DNA from: Candidatus Bathyarchaeota archaeon
GTDB lineage: Archaea > Thermoproteota > Bathyarchaeia > Bathyarchaeales > Bathycorpusculaceae
Assembly (NCBI GenBank): GCA_963720565.1
Contig: CAVRFW010000009.1
Span: forward strand, 1-64,000
Direction of reading: 5' to 3'
DNA length: 64,000 nt
Below are positions 5,506 to 58,150 of the stretch, piece by piece. How positions within the stretch are numbered: position 1 is the stretch's first letter; every line of letters begins with the position of its first letter. A model generated the notes under the pieces. That model saw nothing but the letters and a program-made list of their open reading frames with translations, searched no databases and had not been told where the DNA came from. A program made the translations under genes and the position numbers.

Positions 5506-6665
5506 TTGGTGGCGAGAAAGTCTGTAATAGTAATCTTTCTGATAGTGGTTCTTTCAATTTCGATATTTGCAGCGAAAGAATTGCTTAGCAGAAGCGGCTC
5601 TGATTCAGACGTCTTTGTTGGCGTTGAATTCGCCTATAGTGACAAAGTGTCTGACTTGAAGGAGTTGGTTGACAAAGTAAAGGGTTACACGAGTCTTTTC
5701 GTAATAGGTTCACTGCCGATAACTTTCAATCAGACTGGATTGGACGAGGCTTGCGATTATGTTGTTGATGCTGGCTTACGCTTGATTGTTTTGTTTACAG
5801 ACAGCACAATGTACAATTTCACAATTGTCAAGGCAGGTCAGGTTCATAATTACACCGTTTTTGACTGGATGAATGACGCTAGGCTAAAGTATGGTGACAG
5901 TTTGCTGGGCATCTATAGGTATGACGAGCCGGGAGGAAACCAGCTAGACCAGGGTGCTGCCATGATGATTAAGAACGCTACAGACTACGCCGACGCCGCA
6001 TCACTCTTTACTTTAAATCTGGGGATAATAGTTAATTACTATTTGGATTATACGACGAGGCTCTTTACGGCGGACTATGGTCTTTACTGGTTTGACTACG
6101 AAGCTGGCTACAGTGCCGTGTTTGCAGAGTTCGGGTGGAACCACAGCAGAAACTTGAACATAGCACTTTGTAGAGGCGCTGCAAAAGCCTATAACAAGGA
6201 TTGGGGTGCCATAGTCACTTGGGAGTACACCAACCCTCCCTACATTGGGTCAGGAGACAGCTTTACGAGGACATGGTTCTGGCTTACAAGAATGGGGCAA
6301 AATACATCATAATTTTTGACTACCCGCAAATTGAACAATACGGAATTTTGACAGACGCTCATTTTGATGCAATCAAAAAATTCTGGAATTATGTCCAGAG
6401 TAACCCGCACGGTTATGGAGAATACGTGGGGGAGGTGGCGTATGTTCTGCCCGAGGATTACGGCTTTGGTTTTAGGAGTCCGGAAGACAAGATTTGGGGA
6501 CTGTGGGGTCCAGATGTTTTGTCACAGAAGGTTTGGGAAGACGCAGACACCCTGATAGCAAGGTATGGTTCCAGTTTGGATATTGTCTACGACGACTCGG
6601 AAGTTTTTGACGCTGTACGCGGCCGCTATAGAAACATATTCTTCTGGAATGGCACAATTAAATAG
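5506..6665 (+). CDS. Exported hypothetical protein (possibly glycoside-hydrolase-like barrel), frameshift at ~6259
   Basis: Signal/anchor peptide and YRYDEPGG motif; ORFs 5506..6312 and 6201..6665 join with one inserted base. Confidence 0.65.
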
Positions 6666-6983
6666 TACACTGTAGCACGATTGAAGCGTCAGTTTGGCTA
6701 TTTCCATCTGAAAATTCTTGCTGATATCAGAATCCCTGCACTAGAATGCCGAGCATGATAGCGATTTCTGTTACGTGTTGAGCCAAGCTTTCCTATCCAT
6801 AGGCTTTGCAGGAGAGTTGTTACGTGGGTCATTGGAAGGATTTGTGCAACCTGCCATTATGAGCAAGAAATGGCGTGAAATCTACCTTAGCGCGGACAGA
6901 CTGCACGCTATTTTCTTGAATCGGGTGTTCTTTTTCACATCTGCATTTAGTATTTTCCACTGTTACCTTTCTTTTGAAAAATA

Positions 6984-7051
6984 TTAAATACGAGTTGATC
7001 CCATGAGAGTATCTGCCTTGCAAAAGGCATATACTGAAAGGAGAAAAGAAA
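6984..7051 (+). promoter_or_regulatory. TATA box, GCCTT-GCAA-AAGGC hairpin and RBS of beta-propeller paralog 1
   Basis: TTAAATA 6984-6990; TGCCTT/AAGGCA inverted repeat 7014-7029; GAAAGGAGAA before ATG 7052. Confidence 0.75.
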
Positions 7052-9628
7052 ATGACTAGAAACAAAACTGCTATAGCGATTGCTATACTTCTGACATTTG
7101 CCATGACATTTTCACTTATTGCTTTACCTACTGTTAACGCACAAGGTTACAAAGAGAAAACAACATACTCTTACGTTATCGCTACACCTAACCCAGTGGG
7201 CATTGGTCAACCAGCGCACATCATCTGCGGAACTACAGACTATCTTCTACAGTATCCCGACGGATGGACCGGGATAACTGTAACGGTCACCAAACCTGAC
7301 GGTACAACCGAAACCCTTGGACCCTTCAAGACAGACGCCACAGGCTCAACAGGCACGACATACGTACCTGCCACGGCTGGCACCTACAAATTCCAATCCC
7401 ACTTCCCCGCACAATGGTACAACTGGACATCCCCTGCACTTTTTGATCCCACATTCTTTGGTCCTGTATGGTATTTAGCCAGCGACAGTCCGGAATTCGT
7501 GCTCACTGTACAAACAGAACCGCTTCCAAGCTATCCAGGAGTTCCACTGCCAACAGAATACTGGACCCGTCCCATAGACGCACAGCAACGAGAATGGGCA
7601 ATGATTGCTGGAAACTGGGTTGACGCGCCTTTCAACATGTACACTGAAAACAACGAAGGACCCGAAACAGCTCACGTACTATGGGCAGAACCACTCATAG
7701 AAGGAGCGTTTAGCCCACTCGGCGGAGGCATAGCTGGAGGATTTACTACAGGAGGACCGGCTTACGACCTTGGATTCGAAACTGGCGACGCCTACGAAGG
7801 ATTCTTCATGAGCTCAAGTCTACTCGGCAGCCGCTGGCCAGTGATTATCGGTGGCGTGCTCTATTTCAACGTAGAAAAAGCTGACGGTGCTACAAGAATT
7901 GAGAGGGAGATTGTTGCTGTGGACTTACGTACTGGCGAAGAACTATGGAAGAGAAACTGGAACAACACAAGACTAGATTTCGGCCAATTATTCTACTGGG
8001 ACTCTTACAACTACCACGGAGTCTACGCATATCTGTATTCAGTGGTTGGCACAACCTACAACGTGTACGAAGCCTCTAACGGACGCTGGGTATTCAGCAT
8101 CAATAATGTTCCGTCAGGCACGAGGTTGTATGGACCCAATGGGGAACTGCTCATATACACGATCAACCAGGCAGCAGGCTGGATGACACTATGGAACTCG
8201 ACTCACGTTGAAAGACAACAAAAGATCAGGGATTATGGTCCATCAGGATCATTCCACGGAAGTTGGCTGAATCAAGGTTCAGGCTACATGGGAACAACAC
8301 TCAACGGCAGCCTCGGCTACATGTGGAACAAGACTATACCATTAGGTCTGCCAGGATCAGTCTGGGCTGTTTACCCAGACGATATGGTAGTCGGTAACCA
8401 ATTGTACGGTGGCTGGATGGTTGTAGGCGAAGACCCCGCTGTATTCTGGGCAGTCAGCCTCAAAGCAGGGACAAGAAGGACAACTGCTATACAATAGAAC
8501 TTGGGCTAGACCACAAGGCGACATAGCCATGATTAGAGCTGCTGTAAGCAGAGACAGTCGTGTTTTCACTTTGCGTGCCAAAGAAAAGATGCAGATGTAC
8601 GGTTTCAACCTTGACACAGGTGCCAAATGTGGGGTCCAACTGAACCGTTTGACATCCGCTCCATATACGGCGCAACTGCTTACATCGCATACGACAAATT
8701 GTTCTTCACAGCCGACTTTGCCGGAATAGTATACTGCTACGATGTGAAAACAGGCGAGCTCGAATGGACATACGAGGTTAGAGATCCCTACGGAAGCAGC
8801 GAGATGTACCAAAAAGAGTTCGGAGGCGAGATGTGGCCTATCACTCCGTTGTTCATAACCGACGGAAAAATCTACATAGGCCAGAGCGAACACTCACCAG
8901 AGAACCCCTTGCCACGCGGTGCACCATTCATCTGCATTGACGTAGAAACAGGCGGAGAAGTTTTCCGAGTAAACGGCATGTTCCGTCAAACCCGCTGGGG
9001 TGGACGTGCAATCATAGGCGACAGCATAATTGCAACCATGGACACATATGACCAGCGCATATACGGAATAGGCAAGGGACCAAGCGCTACCACAGTCACG
9101 ATACAAGACGACATCGTCACTCACGGAGACAGCGTTCTAGTGAAAGGCATGGTGACTGACATTTCAGCCGGCACGAAGGATGACTCTTTGGCGTCTCGTT
9201 TTCCACACGGTGTTCCCGCAGTCTCTGATGCAAGCATGAGCGACTGGATGCTATACGTGTACAAAGAATTCCCATGCCCAGCAAACGCCACCGGCGTTGA
9301 AGTAATAGTTGAGGTATTTGATCCGAACAACAACTACTACGAAGTCGGCAGAGCTACAAGCGACGGCGCTGGATTCTTCAGCTTGGCTTTCACTCCGGAA
9401 GTTCCGGGCAAATACACTGTCATAACTAGATTCGCAGGCACCAAGTCCTACTGGCCATCGTACACAGAAACCGCAATCAACGTCGAGCAAGCACCCGAGG
9501 CCACTCCAGAACCAACACAAGCTCCAGCGACAATGGCTGAACAGTACTTCCTGCCCTCAGTAGCAGGCATAATCGCAGCAATCGCAGTAGTCGGCGCAGT
9601 AATAGTGCTGATGCTCAGAAAACGGTAA
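7052..9628 (+). CDS. Surface-anchored PQQ-like beta-propeller repeat protein, paralog 1 (frameshifts at ~8468 and ~8625)
   Basis: Signal peptide, PNPVGIGQ, LPTEYWTRPI, DLRTGEELW and DVKTGELEW blade repeats, C-terminal TM+LRKR; colinear with paralogs 2 and 3. Confidence 0.85.
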
Positions 9629-9654
9629 AAAACCCGAAAATACAAATTTCAATC

Positions 9655-9666
9655 TCCCCTTTTTTT
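9655..9666 (+). terminator. C-run/oligo-T archaeal terminator
   Basis: TCCCCTTTTTTT about 27 nt after the stop; same pattern after paralogs 2 and 3. Confidence 0.6.
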
Positions 9667-9906
9667 ATAAAAACGTTTTCATGGCACTTCAATGAACGCT
9701 TGCGATAAGTTTTAGTGGGATAATCTCTATCAGACTTGATGGAGAAAGATGTAGAAGCCAATTAAGGGCGAAATTTGCTCTCTGAACTGGAATCAGCGAT
9801 AGCTGGGTAGCTATTGGGATTTGAAATCTGCTGTTCTTCCCTGCTTGGTCTCCGGTTTCGTTCTCAGCTCTCTTTTTCCTTGCTGTTTCTCGATTTGGAA
9901 AATTGC

Positions 9907-9974
9907 TTAAATAGGAGGCATACTAGAAGAATAGTAGCTTTGAAAAAAGGCTTATAATGAAAGGAGAATAGAAA
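9907..9974 (+). promoter_or_regulatory. TATA box, AGCTTT-GAAAA-AAGGCT hairpin and RBS of paralog 2
   Basis: TTAAATA 9907-9913; inverted repeat with one G-U pair at 9936-9952; GAAAGGAGAA before ATG 9975. Confidence 0.72.
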
Positions 9975-12470
9975 ATGACTAAAAGTAAGACAGCTATAGC
10001 GATTGCTATCTTAGTGTTTGCAATGGCTTTTTCACTTTTCGCTCTACCAACTAACGCACAACCAGGAGTTACACTGAAAACCTATCCCTTCGTCGATGCC
10101 ATCCCCAACCCGGTAGGCGTTGGCGAAGACCTGTTGATTCGCTTCGGTATTCTACAGCAGACGCCAAACGTAGCGTTCGGATATTCGGGGCTGACGGTAA
10201 CCATCACTCGACCAGACGGAACAACTGAAACGCGCGGACCATTCACGACAGACTCAACAGGAGGAACCTACACGTTATACCCAGCCACACAAGTTGGCAC
10301 ATACAAGATTAAGGCCAATTTCCCAGAACAGACTTGGACCTTCGGAGCCTTCTTCAACCTTGAAGGGGGTAACATGATTTTCGATGGAACGACGATGGCA
10401 GCCAGCACCAGCGAGACTATTGATGTTGTTGTTCAGGCAGATCCCCTACCGGCTTATCCAGGCAATCCTCTGCCCTCGGAATATTGGACTCGTCCGATAG
10501 ATCCGCAGCTTAGAGAATGGGCATCAATCGCAGGCAACTGGGTCCAACGACCTGATAATTCGTTGGCGCTTTACAACGACGATGCACCAGAGACTGCTCA
10601 CGCACTGTGGAGCACACCATTAACCACCGGAGGCTTAATCGGAGGCCTATGGGGAGAAGGATTAACTCCATCGTCAGCTGAAACAGGAGACGCGTACGAA
10701 GGCAAATTCCCCAGCGCAGTAGTAATCAGCGGAATCGTCTATTATACAAGAACAGATACCAGAGCAGAAAGAGCACCGGCTATCATCGGAATAGACTTGC
10801 ACACTGGAGAACAAGTTTTCTTCAAGAACAACACTTCACTATCATTTGGTCAAGTCTTGTACTTCAACAGTTGGAACTATGACGGCACATACACTTACCT
10901 CTGGGACAACAATTGGAACGCATACGACCCCTTCACGGGCAATTTCCAGTATGGTTTCAACTACGTACCTTCAGGCGTTAGGGCTTACGGACCAAGCGGC
11001 GAAATACTCATCTACCAAATCGACTATGCTAATAATTGGATGGCTCTTTGGAACTCAACTGCTGCTGGACACGCTCACTTAGGAGCAATGGGTCCTGACT
11101 ATGGCAGTTGGGGCAACTCAGTGCACGGATCCAAATGGGACGCAAACGTCTCAAGAGCCTACTCTTGGAACGTATCAATCCCCGCAGGACTACAAGCTGG
11201 AACATCATTCTTTGCACCAGTACTCAAGATTTATCCTGACAGAGTAATGACTGCATGGTGGAACTATACGCATGTAAGGACATGGGCATTGAGTACAGCA
11301 GCAAACAATAGAGGACAATTGCTGTTCGACAAATGGTGGAATGCACCTGCCGAATGGAATGACGGAAAGAACACAATACAATACGCCAGCGCGACTAACC
11401 AGGTTGAACACGGCGTCTTCACATTATGGAACAAAGAACTCAGAAAGCACTATGGTTTCAGCGTGGAAACTGGAAACTTCATGTGGGAAACAGACAGCGA
11501 ACACTTCTTGGACGCTTACGGCTGGGGCAATGCTGAGCACACATGGTACTTTGCTTACGGCAAATACTTCTCAACAGGCGTTGGCGGCATAGTATATGCC
11601 TATGACGATCAGACAGGAGACGTAGCATGGATGTACAAACTAGATGATGCGTACAATGAACCAGTGACTGGTGATCGTTGGTGGGGCTGGATAGACCTCA
11701 TTACCGACGGAAAAGTCTACGTAGGCCATATTGAGCACTCTGCAGAACAACCTATGCCACGCGGCGCACCATACGTGTGCCTCGACGCTGAAACAGGCGA
11801 TGAAGTGTGGAGAGTAAACGGAATGTACCGTCAGACTCGATGGGGTGGCTGCGGAGTAATCGGCGACAGCATAATAGCGACAATGGACACATACGACCAG
11901 CAAGTATGGGCTATAGGAAAAGGCCCAAGCGCAACAACAGTCATGGCTTCACCGAAGGTTTCAAACACGGGCAGCATACTCATTGAAGGCTACGTAACGG
12001 ACACATCCCCTGGAACAGAGGAATATGCTAGAACCGCTCGTTTTCCAAACGGAGTTCCAGCAGTTTCTGACGAAAGCCAGAGCGAATGGATGCTATACGT
12101 ATACAAACAGTTCGGTCGTCCAATGAACGCGACAGGTGTAGACGTACAGATAGACGTTCTGGACGCAAATGGCAACTTCCGAAACATTGGAACAGCCAAG
12201 AGCGATGCCAACGGATTCTACAGCTTCAAATGGTCCCCTGACATCGAAGGCAAATTCACCGTATACGCCAGTTTCGTTGGCTCCAAAGCCTACTATCCAT
12301 CAAGCGCACAGACAGCCTTCATCGTTGACCCCGCACCTGCAGCTACTCCAGAACCTACACAAGCACCAGCATCACTAGCAGACCAGTATCTGCTACCCGC
12401 AACAGGCGGCATAATCGCAGCTATAGCAGTCGTCGGTGTAGTGCTCGCACTACTACTCAGGAAAAAATAA
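9975..12470 (+). CDS. Surface-anchored PQQ-like beta-propeller repeat protein, paralog 2
   Basis: 831 aa; signal peptide, LPSEYWTRPI, DLHTGEQ and DAETGDEVW repeats, C-terminal Ig-like region, TM+LRKK. Confidence 0.9.
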   Translation: MTKSKTAIAIAILVFAMAFSLFALPTNAQPGVTLKTYPFVDAIPNPVGVGEDLLIRFGILQQTPNVAFGYSGLTVTITRPDGTTETRGPFTTDSTGGTYTLYPATQVGTYKIKANFPEQTWTFGAFFNLEGGNMIFDGTTMAASTSETIDVVVQADPLPAYPGNPLPSEYWTRPIDPQLREWASIAGNWVQRPDNSLALYNDDAPETAHALWSTPLTTGGLIGGLWGEGLTPSSAETGDAYEGKFPSAVVISGIVYYTRTDTRAERAPAIIGIDLHTGEQVFFKNNTSLSFGQVLYFNSWNYDGTYTYLWDNNWNAYDPFTGNFQYGFNYVPSGVRAYGPSGEILIYQIDYANNWMALWNSTAAGHAHLGAMGPDYGSWGNSVHGSKWDANVSRAYSWNVSIPAGLQAGTSFFAPVLKIYPDRVMTAWWNYTHVRTWALSTAANNRGQLLFDKWWNAPAEWNDGKNTIQYASATNQVEHGVFTLWNKELRKHYGFSVETGNFMWETDSEHFLDAYGWGNAEHTWYFAYGKYFSTGVGGIVYAYDDQTGDVAWMYKLDDAYNEPVTGDRWWGWIDLITDGKVYVGHIEHSAEQPMPRGAPYVCLDAETGDEVWRVNGMYRQTRWGGCGVIGDSIIATMDTYDQQVWAIGKGPSATTVMASPKVSNTGSILIEGYVTDTSPGTEEYARTARFPNGVPAVSDESQSEWMLYVYKQFGRPMNATGVDVQIDVLDANGNFRNIGTAKSDANGFYSFKWSPDIEGKFTVYASFVGSKAYYPSSAQTAFIVDPAPAATPEPTQAPASLADQYLLPATGGIIAAIAVVGVVLALLLRKK

Positions 12471-12493
12471 ACTTCCAAAACCCAAAACAATTT

Positions 12494-12508
12494 CCCCCCT
12501 TTTCTTTT
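12494..12508 (+). terminator. C-run/oligo-T archaeal terminator
   Basis: CCCCCCTTTTCTTTT after stop 12470. Confidence 0.55.
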
Positions 12509-12637
12509 GTTCAAAAAAAGTCTTCTAAACAAACAAAAACAAGGCAAAAGAATTCAGTTTTTCAGAAGAGAAAGCCTGTAGGACAGATTGTATCTATATT
12601 ATTTTTTTCCATTCTTTCTAGTCCCTCGGAGCAAATG

Positions 12638-12706
12638 ATAAATACGCAGTGCTCTGAAAGGAATCATAGCCTTGAAAAAGGCATAAACTGAAAGGAGAAA
12701 AAAACA
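12638..12706 (+). promoter_or_regulatory. TATA box, GCCTT-GAAA-AAGGC hairpin and RBS of paralog 3
   Basis: ATAAATA 12638-12644; inverted repeat 12669-12682; GAAAGGAGAA before ATG 12707. Confidence 0.75.
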
Positions 12707-15349
12707 ATGCAAAAAAGCAAGATTGCTATAGCAACTACTGTTTTTCTGATGCTAACCATTACACTCGGTGCTATGCCCTCAGCTTTTGCTCACACTCCAG
12801 CATGGCAAGTACCAACATATTCTTTCTGCAGTGTCTCGCCCAATCCAATTGGTGTAGGGCAACAGGTGAACGTAAACTTCTGGGTAAACATACCACCACC
12901 TACGGCAAGTGCACAGTATGGCGACAGATGGGGCGGTTTAACAGTGAAGGTTACAAAGCCTGATGGAACCACTCAGACACTGGGACCATTCACATCCGAT
13001 GCGACTGGAGGAACATACACCACATACACGCCCACGACGGTTGGCGAATATACTTTCCAGATGTTCTTTGCAGGACAAACATTGGCAGGCGCCAATCTCC
13101 CTCCGGGAACTCCGCCTGGCGCGATGGTTGGAGACTATTTCAAGCCTAGCAGCAGCAACATATTCAAGCTGACTGTTCAAGATGAGCAACTAACATATCC
13201 CTCGGCTGTGCCGCTTCCGACACAATACTGGACTCGCCCAATTTACGGTGAAAACAATGAATGGTATCAAATCGGCGGTAACTGGCTCGGTCTTGGCCAA
13301 TCAACATTCGCTGCAACTGGAATGTACAGAACCACCGGAAACTTTAATCCATACACAAAAGCACCCGACTCTGCTCACATCTTATGGACTAAACCTGAAG
13401 CCTTCGGCGGAATTATTGGAGGGGAATATGGCAATACTCAAACATCTAACTACTATTCAACTTCGCAGTACGAACCAAAGTTTGCGCCAATAATAATGCA
13501 AGGCATACTCTACTACACTCTTTATCCAGGGTCTTCCACTCATCCAGAAGGATGGGTAGCAGTTGACCTTCATACCGGACAAACAATCTGGACAAAGACT
13601 GACGAAGAAGTCAACGGTGAAGTACTGAGATGTGGTCAAATACTTAACGAGATCACGCCAAACCAGTATGGAGCCCTCGCTTACCTATGGTCAATCCCCG
13701 CAAGCGGCGCTGGGTTCGGAGGATCACCTTCATACATGTCAATGTATGACGCAATGACAGGCGAATGGATACTAAACGTTACGGGCTCTTTGGGGATGAC
13801 GATTGTAACAGACGAATACGGAGGCTTGATCGGCTACTACGTCAACACTACCACGAACTTCATGACAGGCGAAGTCACAGCGTCTCTAACTATGTGGAAC
13901 TCTACCAGATGCATCAATCTCAACGTAGCCAACTACGGCGGCGGCGAACCGGTTCCTGATCAGTGGATGTGGAGACCCCCACACGGCGCGCAACTCGACT
14001 TTTCATTGGGAAACCAGTGGTCTGCGCCATTACCCGCTACGGACACTGCAGGAAATTCATTGACTGTAATGATGAGCTATTTCGGCTTTTCATTCCCTGG
14101 CTATTTGCTGTCGATTTCCGCTGTACAAAGCGATGTTGTGCTGTTGACTGGAACAACTAATGAAGGTGCATTCCTCTACCAGCCAGGCTGGCAGGAAGAA
14201 GCAGGCTTCAGTGCAAAAGATGGCCATCTGCTATGGGGTCCATTAAACCGAACACAAACGCCATTCTCAATTATATACATGGGCAGTGTCTGGTCTGGAA
14301 GCGGGGCTTACGTAGAACTAGATGAATCAGCATTGGCAGTCACAGGTTACAGTCTCAGTACCGGTCAGAAGCTATGGGGACCAACTGCGCTTCCTAACGC
14401 GAGTCCATTTAGCTCACTCGGCGCAAACGCTATCGTGGCTGACGATTTCATCTACATATGGCTCTACGGAGGAGACGTCTATTCCTTCAACATCCTAACT
14501 GGCGCATTGAAGTGGGAATATCACACGCCCACTGCTGGATACGAGTCTCCATACGGTCGCAATTCCATATGGACTTTCACTGTGGGAACGATTGCCGACG
14601 GCAAACTGTTCGTCCCTGAAGGTCACATGTACAGTCCACCACTATTCCACGATGCACAGCAACTAGCTTTGGACCTAGAAACTGGCGAAGAAGTCTGGAG
14701 CATAGACGCTTTTGACGTTACCAGTGGACCAGCCATATCAGACGGCGTAATGGTAACATTAAACGCCTATGACAACCAGATATATGCATACGGCAAAGGA
14801 CCAACCAAAGTAACTGTTTCGGGACCAGATACTGGCTCAACCATGGACATACCCGTAATGATAAAGGGTACAGTAACTGACATCTCAGCAGGCTCACTGC
14901 AACAAGCAGTAGCAGCAAACTTCCCCAACGGTCTTCCATGCGTCTCTGACGAAAGCATGAGCGACTGGATGGAATTCGTTTACATGCAGCAACCATGCCC
15001 AGCCACAATTACCGGTGTTCCAATCACAATCGACGTCATAGACGACAACGGCAACTACAGAAACATAGGCACAACAACATCTGACTCAAGCGGCACATTC
15101 AGATTCACATGGGTTCCTGACATTCCAGGCGACTTCACCATCATCGCTACCTTTGAAGGTTCAGACTCGTTCTACTCATCATACGCAAGAGACGGTTTCA
15201 CAGTGATGCCAGCTCCAGAACCAACAGCTGAACCAACAGCCGCACCCGCATCTATTGCTGACCAATACATGCTGCCGGGAATAGGCATAATTGTCGCTGC
15301 AATAGCAGTAGTCGGCGCAGTACTCGCACTAATGCTTAGAAAACGGTAA
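12707..15349 (+). CDS. Surface-anchored PQQ-like beta-propeller repeat protein, paralog 3
   Basis: 880 aa; same architecture (LPTQYWTRPI, DLHTGQTIW, DLETGEEVW, TM+LRKR). Confidence 0.9.
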   Translation: MQKSKIAIATTVFLMLTITLGAMPSAFAHTPAWQVPTYSFCSVSPNPIGVGQQVNVNFWVNIPPPTASAQYGDRWGGLTVKVTKPDGTTQTLGPFTSDATGGTYTTYTPTTVGEYTFQMFFAGQTLAGANLPPGTPPGAMVGDYFKPSSSNIFKLTVQDEQLTYPSAVPLPTQYWTRPIYGENNEWYQIGGNWLGLGQSTFAATGMYRTTGNFNPYTKAPDSAHILWTKPEAFGGIIGGEYGNTQTSNYYSTSQYEPKFAPIIMQGILYYTLYPGSSTHPEGWVAVDLHTGQTIWTKTDEEVNGEVLRCGQILNEITPNQYGALAYLWSIPASGAGFGGSPSYMSMYDAMTGEWILNVTGSLGMTIVTDEYGGLIGYYVNTTTNFMTGEVTASLTMWNSTRCINLNVANYGGGEPVPDQWMWRPPHGAQLDFSLGNQWSAPLPATDTAGNSLTVMMSYFGFSFPGYLLSISAVQSDVVLLTGTTNEGAFLYQPGWQEEAGFSAKDGHLLWGPLNRTQTPFSIIYMGSVWSGSGAYVELDESALAVTGYSLSTGQKLWGPTALPNASPFSSLGANAIVADDFIYIWLYGGDVYSFNILTGALKWEYHTPTAGYESPYGRNSIWTFTVGTIADGKLFVPEGHMYSPPLFHDAQQLALDLETGEEVWSIDAFDVTSGPAISDGVMVTLNAYDNQIYAYGKGPTKVTVSGPDTGSTMDIPVMIKGTVTDISAGSLQQAVAANFPNGLPCVSDESMSDWMEFVYMQQPCPATITGVPITIDVIDDNGNYRNIGTTTSDSSGTFRFTWVPDIPGDFTIIATFEGSDSFYSSYARDGFTVMPAPEPTAEPTAAPASIADQYMLPGIGIIVAAIAVVGAVLALMLRKR

Positions 15350-15374
15350 GCAAGTCGGAAGGTCAATCCTTCAC

Positions 15375-15385
15375 TCCCCTTTTTT
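15375..15385 (+). terminator. C-run/oligo-T archaeal terminator
   Basis: TCCCCTTTTTT after stop 15349. Confidence 0.55.
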
Positions 15386-15584
15386 AGTGAGTTAGTGATT
15401 TTCGGCAAGAAGCTAAACGGACAGACAAGTTTATTGAAAGGAATCGAGACCCTCACCACGCATAACGAACCAAAAAAACTCGGGGAATCTGCAATGCACT
15501 TGATATATTAGGACAAGAAGAACTCTCGCTCAGGTTCCTGCGGCTCGCTTTTTGTCTTCTTATGACAACTTTATTTAAAAAGCC

Positions 15585-16061
15585 TTATGTCTCCGCTGAA
15601 TTTTCACAAGCGTCAAACTGATTTGTTCTGAGAGGGAACTGTCTGATTCCAGGCACCGCGAAAAACACATCTACTTTTCGTATGTTGGGCAGCGCTTTAA
15701 TTTTGGATACGTTTCTAAAAAGATCGTTAATATCCCTGAATGCCAGAACTGCATACGCTTCGTAGCTTCCAGTCGTTCGAGTGGCGATTATTACGTTTTG
15801 AGTTTTCTTCAGTTGTTCAACAATCTCAGCCGAGTCTGCCTCCAGCTTAATGTTTATCAACATATGTGCCGTGCCATGGTATCCTATCTTTTCGAGATCT
15901 ATGGTGATTGCAGAAAGGCCAATTGTCCCGTTTGCTTTCATTTCGTTGTATCTTCTTATAACCGTCTGCGTTGAAGTGCCCAGTTTCTTGGCGATAGCCA
16001 TGAACGGTTTTCGAGCGTCTTCGGAAAGCTCTTGAATTATCTTTCGGTCTAGGTTATCCAT
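15585..16061 (-). CDS. Lrp/AsnC family transcriptional regulator
   Basis: MDNLDRKIIQELSEDARKPFMAIAKKLG HTH followed by a RAM-like domain. Confidence 0.92.
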   Translation of the reverse strand: MDNLDRKIIQELSEDARKPFMAIAKKLGTSTQTVIRRYNEMKANGTIGLSAITIDLEKIGYHGTAHMLINIKLEADSAEIVEQLKKTQNVIIATRTTGSYEAYAVLAFRDINDLFRNVSKIKALPNIRKVDVFFAVPGIRQFPLRTNQFDACENSAET

Positions 16062-16074
16062 TCTCTTTTGCCTT

Positions 16075-16548
16075 CTATTCTGAAGATGTTTTCAGGATGT
16101 TCTCTGGATAAAAGTCGAGTTTGTCTGTGCATCCAGTCAATTCGATTTTTAGCACACCTTTTACTTTTTTGAGAGCGTTGCTGACGTTGTCTATTTGTTC
16201 AAGAGAGCCAACTCTTATCGCGGCATGGATGTCATATTTGCCGATTACTCTACAGCAATTGAGGACTCCTGGAAGTTTTTTCAATGCTTTAATAATAGCG
16301 TTTTCACAGTCAGCCTCAGCTATTATGTCTACTACCAGGGTACCGTTGCCTCTGGGGTTTTCCAGATTAGCTATTAAGGTTGTTCCTGTGATTACACCTG
16401 CTTTTTTCATTTTTTTGTATCTTTGGGCGATGGCGGTTATTGAGAGGTTACAGTTTTTCGCAATTTCTGCGAAGTTGCAGCGGGCGTCTCTGAGGAGTGC
16501 TTCTAAGATTTTGATGTCAATTTCGTCGATTTTTGGTTGAGGATTCAC
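16075..16548 (-). CDS. Lrp/AsnC family transcriptional regulator
   Basis: IDEIDIKILEALLRDARCNFAEIAK HTH; VIGKYDI RAM motif. Confidence 0.92.
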   Translation of the reverse strand: MNPQPKIDEIDIKILEALLRDARCNFAEIAKNCNLSITAIAQRYKKMKKAGVITGTTLIANLENPRGNGTLVVDIIAEADCENAIIKALKKLPGVLNCCRVIGKYDIHAAIRVGSLEQIDNVSNALKKVKGVLKIELTGCTDKLDFYPENILKTSSE

Positions 16549-16920
16549 GTTTTGCCAACTCGGCTTGGAACTATTCTGTTATCTCTGTTTATAAGCTCTT
16601 CTTAATTGTAGAAACATCGGTTAATATTTTAAATACTTTTGTAATCTATGATTATGGTTTTCTTGGATTGTTCTATTCTGTGGAAAATGTTAAATATGTA
16701 GCTACCGAAAAGAGTAAAATCCAAAGAATAACTTCAAAAAATGAATAGAAGGAGAAAAAAAATTAGGGGCTGAGAGAGCTCTGGACTAAGATCCTGATAG
16801 CGATGTAGCTGTCGAGATTTGCATTCTCCTTTTTCTCCCATCTTTCTGTTCCAGGGCTCCAGCAAACCCATTTGTCAAGACGACACTGCAACTTTGGGTT
16901 CTCTTGCAGCGATCCCGTCT

Positions 16921-17775
16921 TTATCTTGGATTTGGTTCGTTTGCTTGCTTTCTCCTTCTCCAGCAGCAAACAAACAAAACAATCCAAGCCAAAATTAACG
17001 AAACCGCAACTGCAATGAGAATAGTCCACAGTGAGAACGGAGGAGTTTCGTTCTCGACTTCATTGAACATTACTACTAAGTCGCCCAAAAGCGGTTCCGA
17101 GTATTCAGATTGAATCAGGACATTTACTATTTCAGTCTCGTTCTCAACGTTCTGCGTGTAGTTTATTGGATTCCATTCTGTATCCGTTTTTATGGTGTAA
17201 ACTTCTAACCCGCGGACATCTTCTTCGAAGCTAATTACAAAGTAGGCTGTCGAGCTTGGGCTTTCCGGTGACAGGTAGGGGCTTATGTTGAGGTCATACA
17301 GGAAGAGGTAACTACCGTTTATTGATGCAAGTGGATGCTCGTAATGGATTTTCAACATAAAAAAGTCGCTGAGCGGAGCAATCGTGCAGTTAATCATTGG
17401 CCAATCGCCTATTGCTGTGTGATGTAAAGCCGCAGGGTAAGTCTGGGTGTAGTTACTCCAGGCCAATTCTGTTTCATTCAACAATACGCGAATGTTCACG
17501 GTGCCGGGAGGAGTAGGATAGACCATCATCAGGCTTCGCTGGGAGGCACACGAAGAATCAGTCGAGAGATATATGGGGTATGTTCCATCTATCTTCGCCC
17601 ACAGCGTCCCGTTAACACGCGTGATAGTGTAGTTAACATGTTCTACAGGCATGGACAAAAGCGGACTAGCTGCCTGGTTGGGATTTGCAAACGCAGACAT
17701 AACAAACTCGGAGGCAACAAGGCCAGAAAGCAGCAACGCGATGAATACCAGAAGCGACAGTTTAGTCTGTCTCAT
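16921..17775 (-). CDS. Exported hypothetical protein with C-terminal TM anchor
   Basis: Signal peptide ending AFA-NP; many NxT/S sequons; C-terminal TM+RRRK. Confidence 0.75.
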   Translation of the reverse strand: MRQTKLSLLVFIALLLSGLVASEFVMSAFANPNQAASPLLSMPVEHVNYTITRVNGTLWAKIDGTYPIYLSTDSSCASQRSLMMVYPTPPGTVNIRVLLNETELAWSNYTQTYPAALHHTAIGDWPMINCTIAPLSDFFMLKIHYEHPLASINGSYLFLYDLNISPYLSPESPSSTAYFVISFEEDVRGLEVYTIKTDTEWNPINYTQNVENETEIVNVLIQSEYSEPLLGDLVVMFNEVENETPPFSLWTILIAVAVSLILAWIVLFVCCWRRRKQANEPNPR

Positions 17776-19882: not shown

Positions 19883-21244
19883 TTGTTGAGGCTGAAAAAC
19901 AGCATAAAATCGAACGTCGCGAAAAGAAAGCCGGAAGAATTTTTCGAGCAGATCTTGGGTTTTAAACCTACTGCCTATCAACGCAACCTGATTAAGCTCT
20001 TCGAGGAGAGACAGTTTTTGGCTGCGCGCTGGTGCCGTCAAAGCGGCAAGAGCTGGACAATTAGCGCTTTGCTGTTGAACTACGCCCTAAACCACGATGA
20101 TAGTTACATCGCGGTTGTGGGTCCAAGCTGGCGTCAGACAAAACTGAATGTTCGCCGAATAAGCTTCTTCCTAAGAAAATTGGATGACCCAAGGGTGAAG
20201 GCTCAGAAGACCCGGATTAACTTTCCAAATGGCAGTGTGATCGAGGCTTTTCCGAACAATCCCGATACTATCCGAGGACCAACACTTAACGTTGTTTGGT
20301 GGGATGAGACGAATTTTACTCCCAACGATGAGGACCTGTACGATTCAATCTTGTTTACATTGGGCACGACAAACGGAAAGCTTGTTTGCACGAGTACACC
20401 ATGGAATACAGATTCACTTTTCTGGAAGATGTGCAATCACAGGAACTACGAGGATTTTGCAAGGGATCACGTTACGTGTGAGCAGGCAAAGGAGCCTAAC
20501 GGTCCCTTGAAGGAGGCAATTTTGGACAAGATCAGGCGTCAGTTTGGAGAGGATCCAGCACGGTGGCGAAGGGAAATGGAGGCTGAATGGGCTGAAGACG
20601 AGGACGTTTGGCTGCCGCAATCGCTGATTGCCAGTTGTATTGGAACGGTGAAGAATTGCGGTGAAGACCTTCAACCATGGAACCCGGATGTTGGCTACTC
20701 GGGAGACTTTTTCGCTGGTTTGGATCTAGCTCAGGTGAGAGATTACTGTGTTCTCTCGATTTTTGACAGGGTTAACGACGTGTTGTTTTTGAGGCACTTG
20801 AAGATTTTTCAGCAGCCAACCAAGTACGCTAACGTGCTCGGTTACGTTAAGGCGTTGCAGGATAGGTGGGGCGGGTTCCAGAAGATCCGCGTGGACTTCA
20901 CCAAAGAAGGGCCTTCAATCATAAGCGACATGGAAAACGCTGGCATAAACAATGTTGAAGGTGTTAACTTTAGCGTGCCCAGGAAGAGCGAGATGGCTGG
21001 TTTGCTTAAACAGAGGATGATGAGTCAGCAACTCTTTTTTCCACATTTGACCTGGGAGAAACCATACCGGAGCGACTTGTGCAGCGAGCTAAACGTAGAG
21101 CGTTTCGAGTTGCGGAAGGATGGCGCGATTGGCTTGTCTCATCCAAACGGGACGCATGATGACGTGTTCTGGGCTTGCTCCTTGGGCGTTTACGCGACCG
21201 TAGACATGAAACCCTTTGACATTGAAGCCCTCAAGTTTGGCTGA
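19883..21244 (+). CDS. terL: Terminase large subunit (packaging ATPase plus RNase H-like nuclease); true start may be TTG 19816 with a frameshift near 19925
   Basis: Q-motif PTAYQ, Walker A RQSGKS, Walker B VVWWDE, coupling motif STP, nuclease acids GLDLA, VDFT, HDD. Confidence 0.9.
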   Translation: MLRLKNSIKSNVAKRKPEEFFEQILGFKPTAYQRNLIKLFEERQFLAARWCRQSGKSWTISALLLNYALNHDDSYIAVVGPSWRQTKLNVRRISFFLRKLDDPRVKAQKTRINFPNGSVIEAFPNNPDTIRGPTLNVVWWDETNFTPNDEDLYDSILFTLGTTNGKLVCTSTPWNTDSLFWKMCNHRNYEDFARDHVTCEQAKEPNGPLKEAILDKIRRQFGEDPARWRREMEAEWAEDEDVWLPQSLIASCIGTVKNCGEDLQPWNPDVGYSGDFFAGLDLAQVRDYCVLSIFDRVNDVLFLRHLKIFQQPTKYANVLGYVKALQDRWGGFQKIRVDFTKEGPSIISDMENAGINNVEGVNFSVPRKSEMAGLLKQRMMSQQLFFPHLTWEKPYRSDLCSELNVERFELRKDGAIGLSHPNGTHDDVFWACSLGVYATVDMKPFDIEALKFG

Positions 21245-22716: not shown

Positions 22717-22844
22717 TCACCTCGGGCAGTCGAGTTTGGCCCCTCTCCTCAGGCTTTCCTTCTTGCGGTCGCACAATTTAAAAAGAGATATACACAGATT
22801 ATTCGAACTATCGCACAGAACAATAATTGCAGGGAGGTGACAGA

Positions 22845-23659
22845 ATGAATTACAGAGAGAGACAGGAAATAATAGCTAAATCGCCTATTTCTTTCGGTTA
22901 CCTTAAGCGATTCAACCTCGGCGCTGGGATTCTACACCTCTCACAGGGAATTCTCATGCTAGCTCTGGGTACCCTCTTGTCATGGGAACGAGACATTTAC
23001 ACGTTCTACTTGAAATTCAGTATTGGACCACCCATCTCCGTTGCTCCAAATCCCCAAATCTTCTACACACTTGGTTACATCGGCGTTATCGTTGCATCTT
23101 TCCCTCTGCTATCCGCTATAGCCCATTTCTTAATTGCTTTCCCCAAGAACAAAGACTACAACTGAAAATTTGAAGAAAGGCATGAATCCATACCGCTGGT
23201 ACGAATATTCCATTTCAAGTTCAATAATGATCGTGCTAATCTCAACTTTCGTAGGCGTCTGGGAACTCTGGTCGACTAGTAATGATTTTCGCCTTGAATG
23301 CAATGATGATCATGTTCGGATACTACATGGAGGTAGTCAACCAAAAAACAGAGAAAACATCATGGTCAGCGTTCATCGTCGGCTGCATATCCGGAGGAAT
23401 TCCCTGGGTTGTCATTTTCGCCTATTTCATAGCCGCCATAACATCCACAGGAACGAATCCGCCTACCTTCGTCTACTTGATTTGCCTAATCTACTTCGCT
23501 GTGTTCAATGTCTTCGCGCTGAACATGGTGCTCCAGTACAAAGGAGTCGGACGCTGGAAAGACTACTTGTACGGCGAACGGGTGTACATAATCCTGAGCT
23601 TCGTAGCTAAAACAGCCTTGGCCTGGCTTGTCTTCGTCGGAATATTCGCACCATTCTAG
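22845..23659 (+). CDS. heR: Heliorhodopsin (frameshifts at ~23163 and ~23275)
   Basis: ILHLSQG (TM1 His), AIAHF (TM2 His), NPYRWYEYS (TM3 Arg and counterion Glu), GERVYIILSFVAK (retinal-binding Lys); GGAGGTGA RBS. Confidence 0.92.
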
Positions 23660-57234: not shown

Positions 57235-58150
57235 TTAGTGCACTTTCAAGTGCGTGCTCCGAACTCGCGGGTCTCTACTTGCTATTTCAAGTGCTTTGAA
57301 TGCGCTTTTTTCTTTGTCTTTTATCTCCAGCATTATATCGAAATCAAAAGGTTCAGTTTGTTTCAGGAACAGCCTAAAATCTTCTTCGTCAATTGTTTCA
57401 GCATGTTGTCTTGGCAATCCGCCCGGTTCTTGAGAACTGTAGTCTACCATTGGAATACCATCTCGTTTTTCGTTCCACGTTTTTTCAGAAAGTTCAAGAG
57501 CCTTTCTCTTCTATTTGCATCGAGTTGTTGATCTTGTGGTGAAAGGCATCAAAAAGAACCGGAATATGTATCTGCGCACTTATGTTGAGACAATCATTCA
57601 GATTATACATTTTGTCATCATTCTCTATTACTAAGCGTTTCTGCGTTGAACTGTCAAGGTCGTGGAATCTGGATACAAACCTTTCGAGGCTTCTTTTTTT
57701 GTCTTCATAGACTCCGCCGACGTGTATTTGAATTTTTGAAGAAGCATCCAGTTTCATCAAGTCAAATATGTCAGCATGGTACTTGAGTTCCTTTTCACTT
57801 CGTTCAAAGATTTCTTCTCTAATGGAGTTGATTAGGGTAAACTGGTCTGGATGCATCGATACTCGCATTCTGTTTCTGACAATGAATTCGCCGATTCTCT
57901 CAAAATCACCTTTGAAATGTTCTTGCCAGTCAAAATTGTTAATTGGATGCGAAGCAAAGGGAACTATGTCTGAGGTTATTCTAAAGAAAAGTAGATCATG
58001 CTCAACGTTAAATTTGAGTATTCTTTGCAGGCAGATCAAATTGTTCTTAACGGTTTGTTTAATCCGGCTCTCAGAATAGGATTTCAGCCGGAAAGTCCTG
58101 CCTGAGCTGCAACCAACCGTCAGATTGATGCAGGGATAGCCAATTCTCAT
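57235..58150 (-). CDS. uvsE: UV DNA damage endonuclease UvsE/UVDE (frameshift at ~57501)
   Basis: MRIGYPC, FFRITSD, SMHPDQF, IHVGG, IENDD, FDAFHH, HAE, DIMLEIKDKE. Confidence 0.93.

Follow-up and report, generated by a model that had tools for sequence, protein, structure and literature searches.

Why do three neighbouring genes for β-propeller surface proteins each carry the same small hairpin between promoter and start codon? The question arises from a 64,000-nucleotide (nt) stretch of a Candidatus Bathyarchaeota archaeon (assembly GCA_963720565.1, contig CAVRFW010000009.1, positions 1 to 64,000; hereafter the window), for which a sequence-only reading had proposed an RNA structure near the transcript 5' end, with a DNA operator for the adjacent Lrp proteins as the alternative. 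In many members of this large gene family of sediment archaea, the hairpin holds its position relative to the TATA box, recurs with different sequences and is under selection to fold as sense-strand RNA. We regard the feature as real; it would probably behave like a bacterial 5'-terminal stabilising stem-loop, and an Lrp operator is unlikely.

A hairpin ahead of three propeller genes

All three loci lie on the forward strand and share one layout: a B-recognition element (BRE) with a TATA box, a hairpin of the sequence type called A here, a spacer ending in a Shine-Dalgarno (SD) sequence, and the coding region. At gene 1, the promoter occupies 6975-6990 (TATA 6984-6990, matrix score 13.1) and the hairpin, with a GCAA loop, 7014-7029, with the predicted transcription start (+1) at 7013-7015; an open A-rich spacer and SD (7030-7044, GGAGA 7040-7044), complementary to the bulge-helix-bulge (BHB) RNAs described below, leads into the gene for a PQQ-type propeller surface protein (7052-9628), present as two frameshift-split open reading frames (ORFs; 7052-8497 and 8627-9628). 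Gene 2 has its promoter at 9898-9913 (TATA-like box 9907-9913), whose score of 5.8 is just below the cut-off of 6 used for the main count, a hairpin with one U-G pair and a 5-nt loop at 9936-9952 (+1 placed at 9936-9938), a spacer and SD at 9953-9967 (GGAGA 9963-9967) and a coding region of 831 amino acids (aa) at 9975-12470, with a PQQ_2 match under the Pfam cut-off and weak Ig-like matches. At gene 3, the promoter (12629-12644, TATA-like box 12638-12644), the hairpin with a GAAA loop (12669-12682, +1 placed at 12667-12669) and the spacer with its SD (12683-12698, GGAGA 12694-12698) precede an 880-aa gene (12707-15349) whose PQQ_2 match exceeds the Pfam cut-off.

The hairpins first read from the letters, GCCTT-GCAA-AAGGC (7015-7028), AGCTTT-GAAAA-AAGGCT (9936-9952) and GCCTT-GAAA-AAGGC (12669-12682), are borne out, and an extra T-A pair lengthens the first to 7014-7029. 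The proposed regular spacing also holds, the start of the TATA box lying 31, 29-30 and 31 nt from the hairpin in genes 1, 2 and 3. The tail claimed to follow, ATA-N2-TGAAAGGAGAA, was misread: ATATAC, TTATAA or ATAAAC stands before TGAAAGGAGAA. The hairpin had been assigned to all three paralogs, and all three do carry it, but the genome holds 16 family 5' ends rather than three; type A hairpins occur in five of these, others have types B, C, D or E, and several have short leaders without a hairpin. The 5-nt loop of gene 2 may be an indel error, because it lies within an A6 run and the metagenome ortholog has a 4-nt loop. Taken singly, the window leaders have modest folding z-scores (-1.78, -0.20 and -2.16 for genes 1, 2 and 3), and the bare palindrome has at least dozens of copies in the genome. 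The palindrome alone is therefore little informative; its fixed position is what exceeds chance. At gene 1, the palindrome (7008-7035) also has five further outward pairs past a mismatch, partly upstream of the predicted +1, which the other copies lack.

A fixed position at the predicted transcript start

Family 5' ends were taken from the genome under study (G000) and its relatives with an N-terminal profile, and metagenomes were scanned too. Of 242 distinct ends, 234 have enough upstream DNA; six short metagenome loci bring the set to 240. The metagenome scan used a pattern covering the SD and start codon only, without the hairpin, and 17 of its 24 loci are family genes by translation. A BRE-TATA matrix trained without hairpin information scored at least 6 in 169 leaders, in which the TATA-to-SD distance is bimodal (about 33-36 versus 49-54 nt), separating 75 short from 94 long leaders. 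With a stem finder that treats G-T and A-C alike, a stem is seen to start 22-30 nt after the TATA end in 88 of the 94 long leaders; shuffles reach 660 of 3760, and windows placed at other offsets 4-22 of 94. Within this allowed range, the first paired base falls at offset 24-25 in 53 of the 88 hairpins. Lowering the TATA cut-off to 2, which admits window gene 2, leaves the picture at 102 hairpins in 111 long leaders. At least five unrelated sequence types occupy this same place, type B reading RYRCAC...GUGYRY. The conservation claimed from the window therefore extends family-wide for position and fold, but not for the GCCTT/AAGGC sequence.

Where transcription starts can be judged from leaderless genes. 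In this genome, in-frame ATG codons peak 23-25 nt past the matrix end (8, 12 and 8, versus 1-5 at neighbouring offsets and 0-2 out of frame), which is the signature of leaderless genes; a comparable distance of about 23 base pairs (bp) is reported for T. kodakarensis (PMC4247193). Because this offset matches that of the stem, we infer that the stem begins at about +1; transfer RNA (tRNA) promoters gave no +1 calibration. Counted from offset 24 as the predicted +1, 0-2 unpaired bases precede the stem in 83 of the 94 leaders. Stem position and leaderless-ATG offset thus support the proposal that the hairpin sits near the transcript 5' end, at a predicted +1. A sigma-70 promoter and terminator scan, a method unsuited to archaea, gave background levels.

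Downstream of the stem, the distance to the SD is 9-12 nt in 66 of the 88 hairpins, about the whole length of a short leader, so that the hairpin looks like an add-on before an unchanged ribosome-loading zone. The SD itself is predicted to be mostly open, with a median pairing of 0.10 and values above 0.5 in 7 of the 94 leaders, leaving the ribosome-binding site accessible in prediction. Outside the family, a stem at +1 was found in 6 of 23 long leaders, where shuffles gave 128 of 920 and control windows 0-6 of 23, a comparison of low power. A genome-wide +1 hairpin rule finds no support in these near-background numbers, and the hairpin seems, at that power, to be family-specific. Two non-family genes with a stem near the predicted +1 (G000 C8, minus strand near 57305, and C9:110880) fall within the background numbers. 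Comparison with Rfam, which the sequence-only reading had recommended, gave no match at the gathering score: window positions 6500-17000 yielded two chance-level hits, and sets of 12 and 7 loci none. A riboswitch is rejected as well, since leaders of 37-40 nt leave no space for an alternative fold.

Selection for a fold of the sense-strand RNA

G-T and A-C mismatches ought to be equally acceptable in a DNA palindrome, but not in an RNA stem. In 84 distinct stems returned by a strict finder that allows no mismatches, G-U pairs number 21 and A-C pairs 6, versus 210 and 264 in shuffles, and the outer pairs of 30 type B stems hold 13 G-U and no A-C. A symmetric finder that extends stems through mismatches gives no G-U bias (count below). 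The sense strand is more stable than the antisense strand in 62 leaders and less stable in 27 of the 94 (shuffles, 371 versus 451). GNRA loops make up 14 of 35 tetraloops, where composition predicts 2.8-4.1, and the reversed form (the reverse complement) is seen in none. In 18 type A copies, 93.4% of cells are paired and five of the six pairs show two-sided changes, as against none of 500 shuffles, so that the covariation looked for after the first reading is present. Intermediates are visible, window gene 2 having a U-G pair where its ortholog has U-A and most other copies C-G. Loops range from 3 to 14 nt across the hairpins; the type B spacer is 6 nt in 21 of 30 copies and 4-10 nt in the rest, type E loops measure 6-12 nt, and the half-sites keep no fixed spacing.

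RNA is favoured over DNA because G-U outnumbers A-C, GNRA loops have no reversed counterpart, pairs change on both sides and loops vary in length; position, strand asymmetry, covariation and variable loops together support the earlier proposal of an RNA structure. From the alignments, it is the fold rather than the sequence that appears conserved on the RNA strand, more weakly in the loose count and in a small distant set.

A proposed role in shielding the 5' end

By analogy, the hairpin is on balance probably a bacterial-style 5'-terminal stabilising stem-loop that shields the 5' end of the messenger RNA (mRNA). Each mRNA would open with a stem-loop of 14-20 nt that begins at the first or second transcribed nucleotide. 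The 5' end would thus be paired, and 9-12 unpaired A-rich bases would separate the stem from the SD. A paired end would deny single-stranded entry to 5'-end-dependent enzymes, probably aCPSF2 and aCPSF1, and mRNA life would lengthen while ribosome loading stays free, by analogy with bacteria. As promoter-leader cassettes, some bearing a hairpin and some lacking one, move between paralogs, the expression of single family members would be adjusted anew. The BHB-flanked antisense RNAs of the family would probably pair with the open spacer, the SD and the first codons, from which the conservation of the tail would follow.

Bacterial mRNAs are reported to be stabilised by a hairpin placed at their 5' end or close to it, and the pyrophosphohydrolase BsRppH is reported to require at least two unpaired 5' bases (PMC3997798). 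The leaders described here resemble the stabilising stem-loops of E. coli ompA and papA and B. subtilis aprE (PMC3997798) in placing a stem-loop at the extreme 5' end before an open ribosome-binding site. They differ in their archaeal TATA/BRE promoters, in the nucleases they would face (aCPSF1 and probably aCPSF2, with no RNase J over cut-off) and in having sequence types that are interchangeable across a paralog family; stabilisation is here a predicted effect. TACK archaea are reported to have both aCPSF1 and aCPSF2, the latter a 5'-3' exoribonuclease; both proteins act 5'-3' exonucleolytically, and RNA structure appears to slow or impede Pab-aCPSF1 (PMC3553952, PMC3792030). The genome under study encodes aCPSF1 and a 418-aa β-CASP protein without KH domains, a candidate that by its size is probably aCPSF2. 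A third metallo-β-lactamase/β-CASP-like protein of 450 aa (G000 C9:427047-428399; L317:548-1900) occurs in 20 of the 21 genomes searched and is the best weak match of an RNase J model in this genome, at 79 bits with a cut-off of 400. Another parallel is the protection against aCPSF2 reported for Sulfolobus aIF2-γ (PMC3792030), where the threat is the same, 5'-3' decay by aCPSF2 in the same superphylum; there a protein sits on the triphosphate, whereas here protection would lie within the RNA. It is from the bacterial precedent and the aCPSF1/aCPSF2 setting that shielding emerges as the most likely role.

Several observations weigh against this account, some touching the fold and others the role. 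The loose, mismatch-tolerant finder returns 40 G-U versus 32 A-C (p 0.41), a single terminal G-U accounts for eight of the 13 wobbles in type B, and two type A copies have C-A as their loop-closing pair; the sequences are related, moreover, so that nominal p-values overstate the case. Different genera share the type B stem sequence, and 21 of 30 copies have a 6-nt spacer, which is more than pairing alone may need, and the gene 2 hairpin is weak, at about -4 to -5 kcal/mol. Short leaders account for 75 of the 169 scored, and many paralogs have no hairpin of any kind. Among 50 new leaders from more distant genomes, 5 of 30 scored are long and three of these five carry a hairpin (offset 24-25), with G-U to A-C at 1:2. 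Together with the leaders of family f7, of which 20 are short and the two long ones lack a hairpin, this mostly short set indicates that the hairpin is concentrated in part of family f1. On the side of the nucleases, the 418-aa protein is an aCPSF2 candidate by its size, and no match to RNase J models exceeded the cut-off in 21 genomes. No transcript start shows in four RNA runs (X2, X4, X5 and X8, of 22 listed, from four studies), which consist of contigs only: pieces from relatives cover the three propeller genes but reveal neither start nor strand nor level. Positions 15444-16800 have no coverage, a gap without evidential weight, and most of the BHB RNA falls outside the stretch compared.

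Bulge-helix-bulge RNAs antisense to the leader

The spacer behind the hairpin may have a partner, which came to light through two non-coding matches of the SD tail. A BHB RNA lies at 16766-16869 of the window (forward strand), behind a BRE-TATA-like box at 16681-16696 that was read from the sequence, unscored, with transcription predicted to start near 16720. Its outer helix pairs 16766-16768 with 16867-16869 and its central 4-bp helix 16769-16772 with 16860-16863; the bulges are at 16773-16775 and 16864-16866, the predicted excised piece spans 16775-16865, and an antisense stretch of about 16815-16851 contains an anti-AUG (16822-16824) and an anti-SD (16834-16838). The BHB fold is part of the minimum-energy structure of this copy, in which outer helices enclose a 4-bp helix and each strand has a 3-nt bulge. 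None of the three propeller genes has such an element behind it, and the window copy, with its own TATA-like box, is divergent from the Lrp pair; it stands without a propeller gene in front, as if the gene had been deleted.

Genome and loci together yielded 69 distinct hits, 53 of them anchored at both ends, and 38 of the 53 show the exact 3-4-3 geometry. A membrane-anchor-type stop codon precedes the element in 46 of the 53, mostly by 50-95 nt. Covariation is strong in the inner helix, with two-sided changes in 11 of 16 pairs among 36 copies, rows that were chosen for geometry and come mostly from the 38 exact ones; G-U and A-C number 57 and 65 with loose anchoring and 39 and 22 with strict anchoring (p 0.04). 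The tRNA splicing endonuclease is reported to cleave a BHB, and RtcB to close the intron into a circle (PMC4731332), and the genome encodes EndA (two genes) and RtcB (in two pieces in the assembly). The element at 16766-16869 thus shares its 3-4-3 geometry, and the presence of EndA and RtcB genes, with the BHB-processed circular RNAs known from tRNA introns, precursor ribosomal RNA and the Thermoproteus signal recognition particle RNA (PMC4731332, PMC12558985); the circular antisense non-coding RNAs described for insertion sequence elements in Sulfolobus (PMC3326292) offer a further comparison. Unlike those known BHB and circular RNAs, it has a loop that is antisense, in trans, to the start regions of an entire protein family, and its circle is a prediction.

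The BHB loop is the reverse complement of the family spacer, SD, start codon and first codons. By local alignment, used instead of a duplex-energy ranking that was dominated by G+C, family start regions rank top among 453 for six of six BHB copies (Mann-Whitney p < 1e-7). On the window, a covariance model built from BHB RNAs alone ranks its own copy (16763-16872) first, followed by the three leaders read on the minus strand (7020-7101, 12681-12748 and 9933-10039). The antisense sequence tracks the lineage's own start regions in 14 of 14 and 20 of 20 cases, to which base composition may contribute, and targeting of each RNA's own upstream gene is rejected, the own gene ranking 4-15 of 15 in 14 copies; action in trans across the family is therefore indicated. 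Within the order, 37 of 141 genomes match the model at 26 scored candidates each; 29 of the 30 BHB-matching genomes listed have propeller matches, and six listed propeller-bearing genomes have no RNA match. The BHB RNA could, from these alignments, be a circular antisense RNA against the ribosome-binding and start region of the family.

Could the hairpin then belong to the antisense control itself, keeping spacer and SD open as a docking site or stacking on the duplex of small RNA and mRNA? Such a module, in which the hairpin would settle whether a silenced mRNA survives, would be compatible with shielding and gains from the placement of the antisense stretch, which mirrors the spacer directly behind the stem (as in the C12 copy against gene 1), and from the target ranking, the model matches and the lineage tracking above. 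The BHB RNAs are, however, abundant in f7 with its nearly all short leaders and so need no hairpin, and the 5' limit of pairing relative to the stem is scattered from -28 to -3. We consider this explanation unlikely.

Further BHB copies lie at G000 C3:32904-33017, C5:3962-4073, C13:33284-33402, C13:57765-57876 and C12:131-251. Many elements have an SD-like GGAGAA in the 50-nt stretch on their 5' side (window 16750-16756, for example), which, in the precursor, might base-pair with the antisense loop and keep it hidden before the piece is excised. Partial elements with one end occur at G000 C5:347086-347185, C6:9219-9315, C3:36796-36834 and C5:347859-347952; some of their loops do not match the family start region, and the copies may be decayed or have other genes as targets. 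Viral contigs did not show the BHB pattern, and a small protein on the opposite strand is rejected, as the frames are not conserved and some copies have no start codon.

Possible protein sites and Lrp operators

The hairpin might instead be read by an RNA-binding protein that recognises the stem sequence or the GNRA loop and controls translation or stability. The excess of GNRA loops and the type B core CAC/GUG, kept across several genera, would suit such a site. At least five unrelated stem sequences, with loops of 3-14 nt, nevertheless occupy the same place, GNRA loops also simply stabilise short stems, and no candidate protein was found beside the loci, which leaves recognition by a protein distinctly improbable.

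Archaeal repressor operators, those of the Lrp/AsnC family included, can overlap the start site. The palindromes could be operators that overlap +1 and bind dimeric repressors, for instance the Lrp proteins encoded nearby, whose tandem genes (15585-16061 and 16075-16548, together 15585-16548, reverse strand) are oriented towards gene 3 and away from the promoter of the BHB RNA. The likeness is real enough: a short palindrome near +1 with Lrp genes close by, Lrp pairs adjoining many paralogs, two-sided changes such as dimeric operators also show, and centres of 4 nt in most type A and 6 nt in 21 of 30 type B copies. The excess of G-U over A-C and of GNRA over its reverse complement is nonetheless strand-specific, contrary to the symmetry of mismatches due in DNA (21 versus 6 and 13 versus 0, the loose count not being significant), and spacing varies, from 4 to 10 nt in nine of 30 type B copies and from 6 to 12 nt in type E loops. 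A control palindrome, which some of these promoters carry ahead of the BRE, shows what an operator looks like, its spacing being exactly 11 nt in six of seven matches. Nor do hairpins co-occur with Lrp pairs: of eight Lrp-divergent paralogs, in four of five genomes searched, six have short leaders without a +1 palindrome, two have type B and none type A. The Lrp operator raised by the first reading thus finds no support and is very unlikely.

The control palindrome, TGTAAG-N11-CTTA(C/G)A, ends 11-12 nt before the TATA end (L086, L088, L090, L094 and L100 of G014; L232 of G398); its fixed spacing is operator-like behaviour, and it is likely an activator site for some protein. A different palindrome, resembling TGTAGT-N3-ACTACA, lies ahead of some promoters in G002 and in metagenomes. 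Lrp/AsnC pairs, tandem or fused, are repeatedly divergent from propeller genes (G000 C3:35844-36453 and C5:6939-7522, and loci of G001, G006 and G014), and no binding site of these propeller-adjacent pairs was found in the loci of this genome, G001, G006 and G014.

Exchange of leader cassettes

Leader type does not follow the protein tree, here a quick version of 77 rows with one type E leader mislabelled B: type A undergoes at least six changes on well-supported branches. A close relative of gene 1 in G002 is 80-84% identical in coding DNA and has a type B leader that is 58% identical. Conversely, the leader of a metagenome paralog is 92-95% identical to those of two G000 paralogs, with coding DNA only 50-58% identical, and leader identities of 82-95% are found between paralogs whose coding DNA is 50-62% identical. 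Promoter-leader cassettes appear from these comparisons to move between paralogs, assembly chimeras being a conceivable alternative. Because cassettes swap in this way, the three window copies are not independent, and the hairpin common to them probably reflects recent cassette spread rather than deep conservation of one motif. That the hairpin is functionless by itself and merely hitch-hikes on promoter cassettes spread by recombination between paralogs, as these identities and the scatter of leader types over the tree might suggest, is scarcely credible, since hitch-hiking accounts neither for pairing kept through substitutions nor for unrelated hairpins at the same offset.

Gene products and other features of the window

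The products of the window genes are secreted, C-terminally anchored proteins of about 830-880 aa with a PQQ_2 propeller and weak Ig-like matches, and their named relatives are nearly all from Bathyarchaeia. According to a preprint, proteins of this kind have multiplied strongly in Bathy-6 genomes, rank among the most expanded Bathyarchaeia families and are proposed to act on lignin (10.1101/2024.09.16.613360); we infer that the family studied here is the cluster of that preprint. A single-sequence structure prediction for gene 3 was unusable, with a predicted local distance difference test score (pLDDT) of 35.7. Many genes are frameshift-split, among them a membrane-protein neighbour, RtcB and several paralogs (window 7052-9628, which is gene 1, 5506-6665 and 22827-23659; G000 C5:338032-339343), which suggests assembly indel errors; near 8623, the contig of a relative has one extra base. 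At 19883-21244 of the window, a terminase-like ORF, with large-subunit motifs recognised by eye, stands beside a small helix-turn-helix ORF and is possibly a provirus remnant.

Implications

5'-terminal stem-loops are a textbook stability device of bacteria. The literature searched, outside which most subscription papers lay, held no natural +1 hairpins on archaeal mRNAs and no account of the leaders of this gene family, and the main text of the Bathyarchaeia preprint (10.1101/2024.09.16.613360) contains no word beginning with RNA, antisense, non-coding or transcript; PMC7289017 likewise yielded nothing on the matter. A family with matched leaders, some with a hairpin and some without, offers a ready-made natural experiment to learn if 5'-3' decay in archaea depends on a free, unpaired terminus. 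The exchange of cassettes and the antisense RNAs aimed at the stretch behind the hairpin add to this interest, and leader cassette and antisense RNA together form a testable model for the dosing of dozens of paralogs. In its fullest and rather doubtful form, the leader would be the receiving half of a family-wide post-transcriptional switchboard: cassettes would set mRNA lifetime, spliced and probably circular antisense RNAs shed behind paralogs would block ribosome sites in trans, and the hairpin would decide which silenced mRNAs are kept or destroyed. If this were true, the cell could display a changing subset of dozens of surface proteins.

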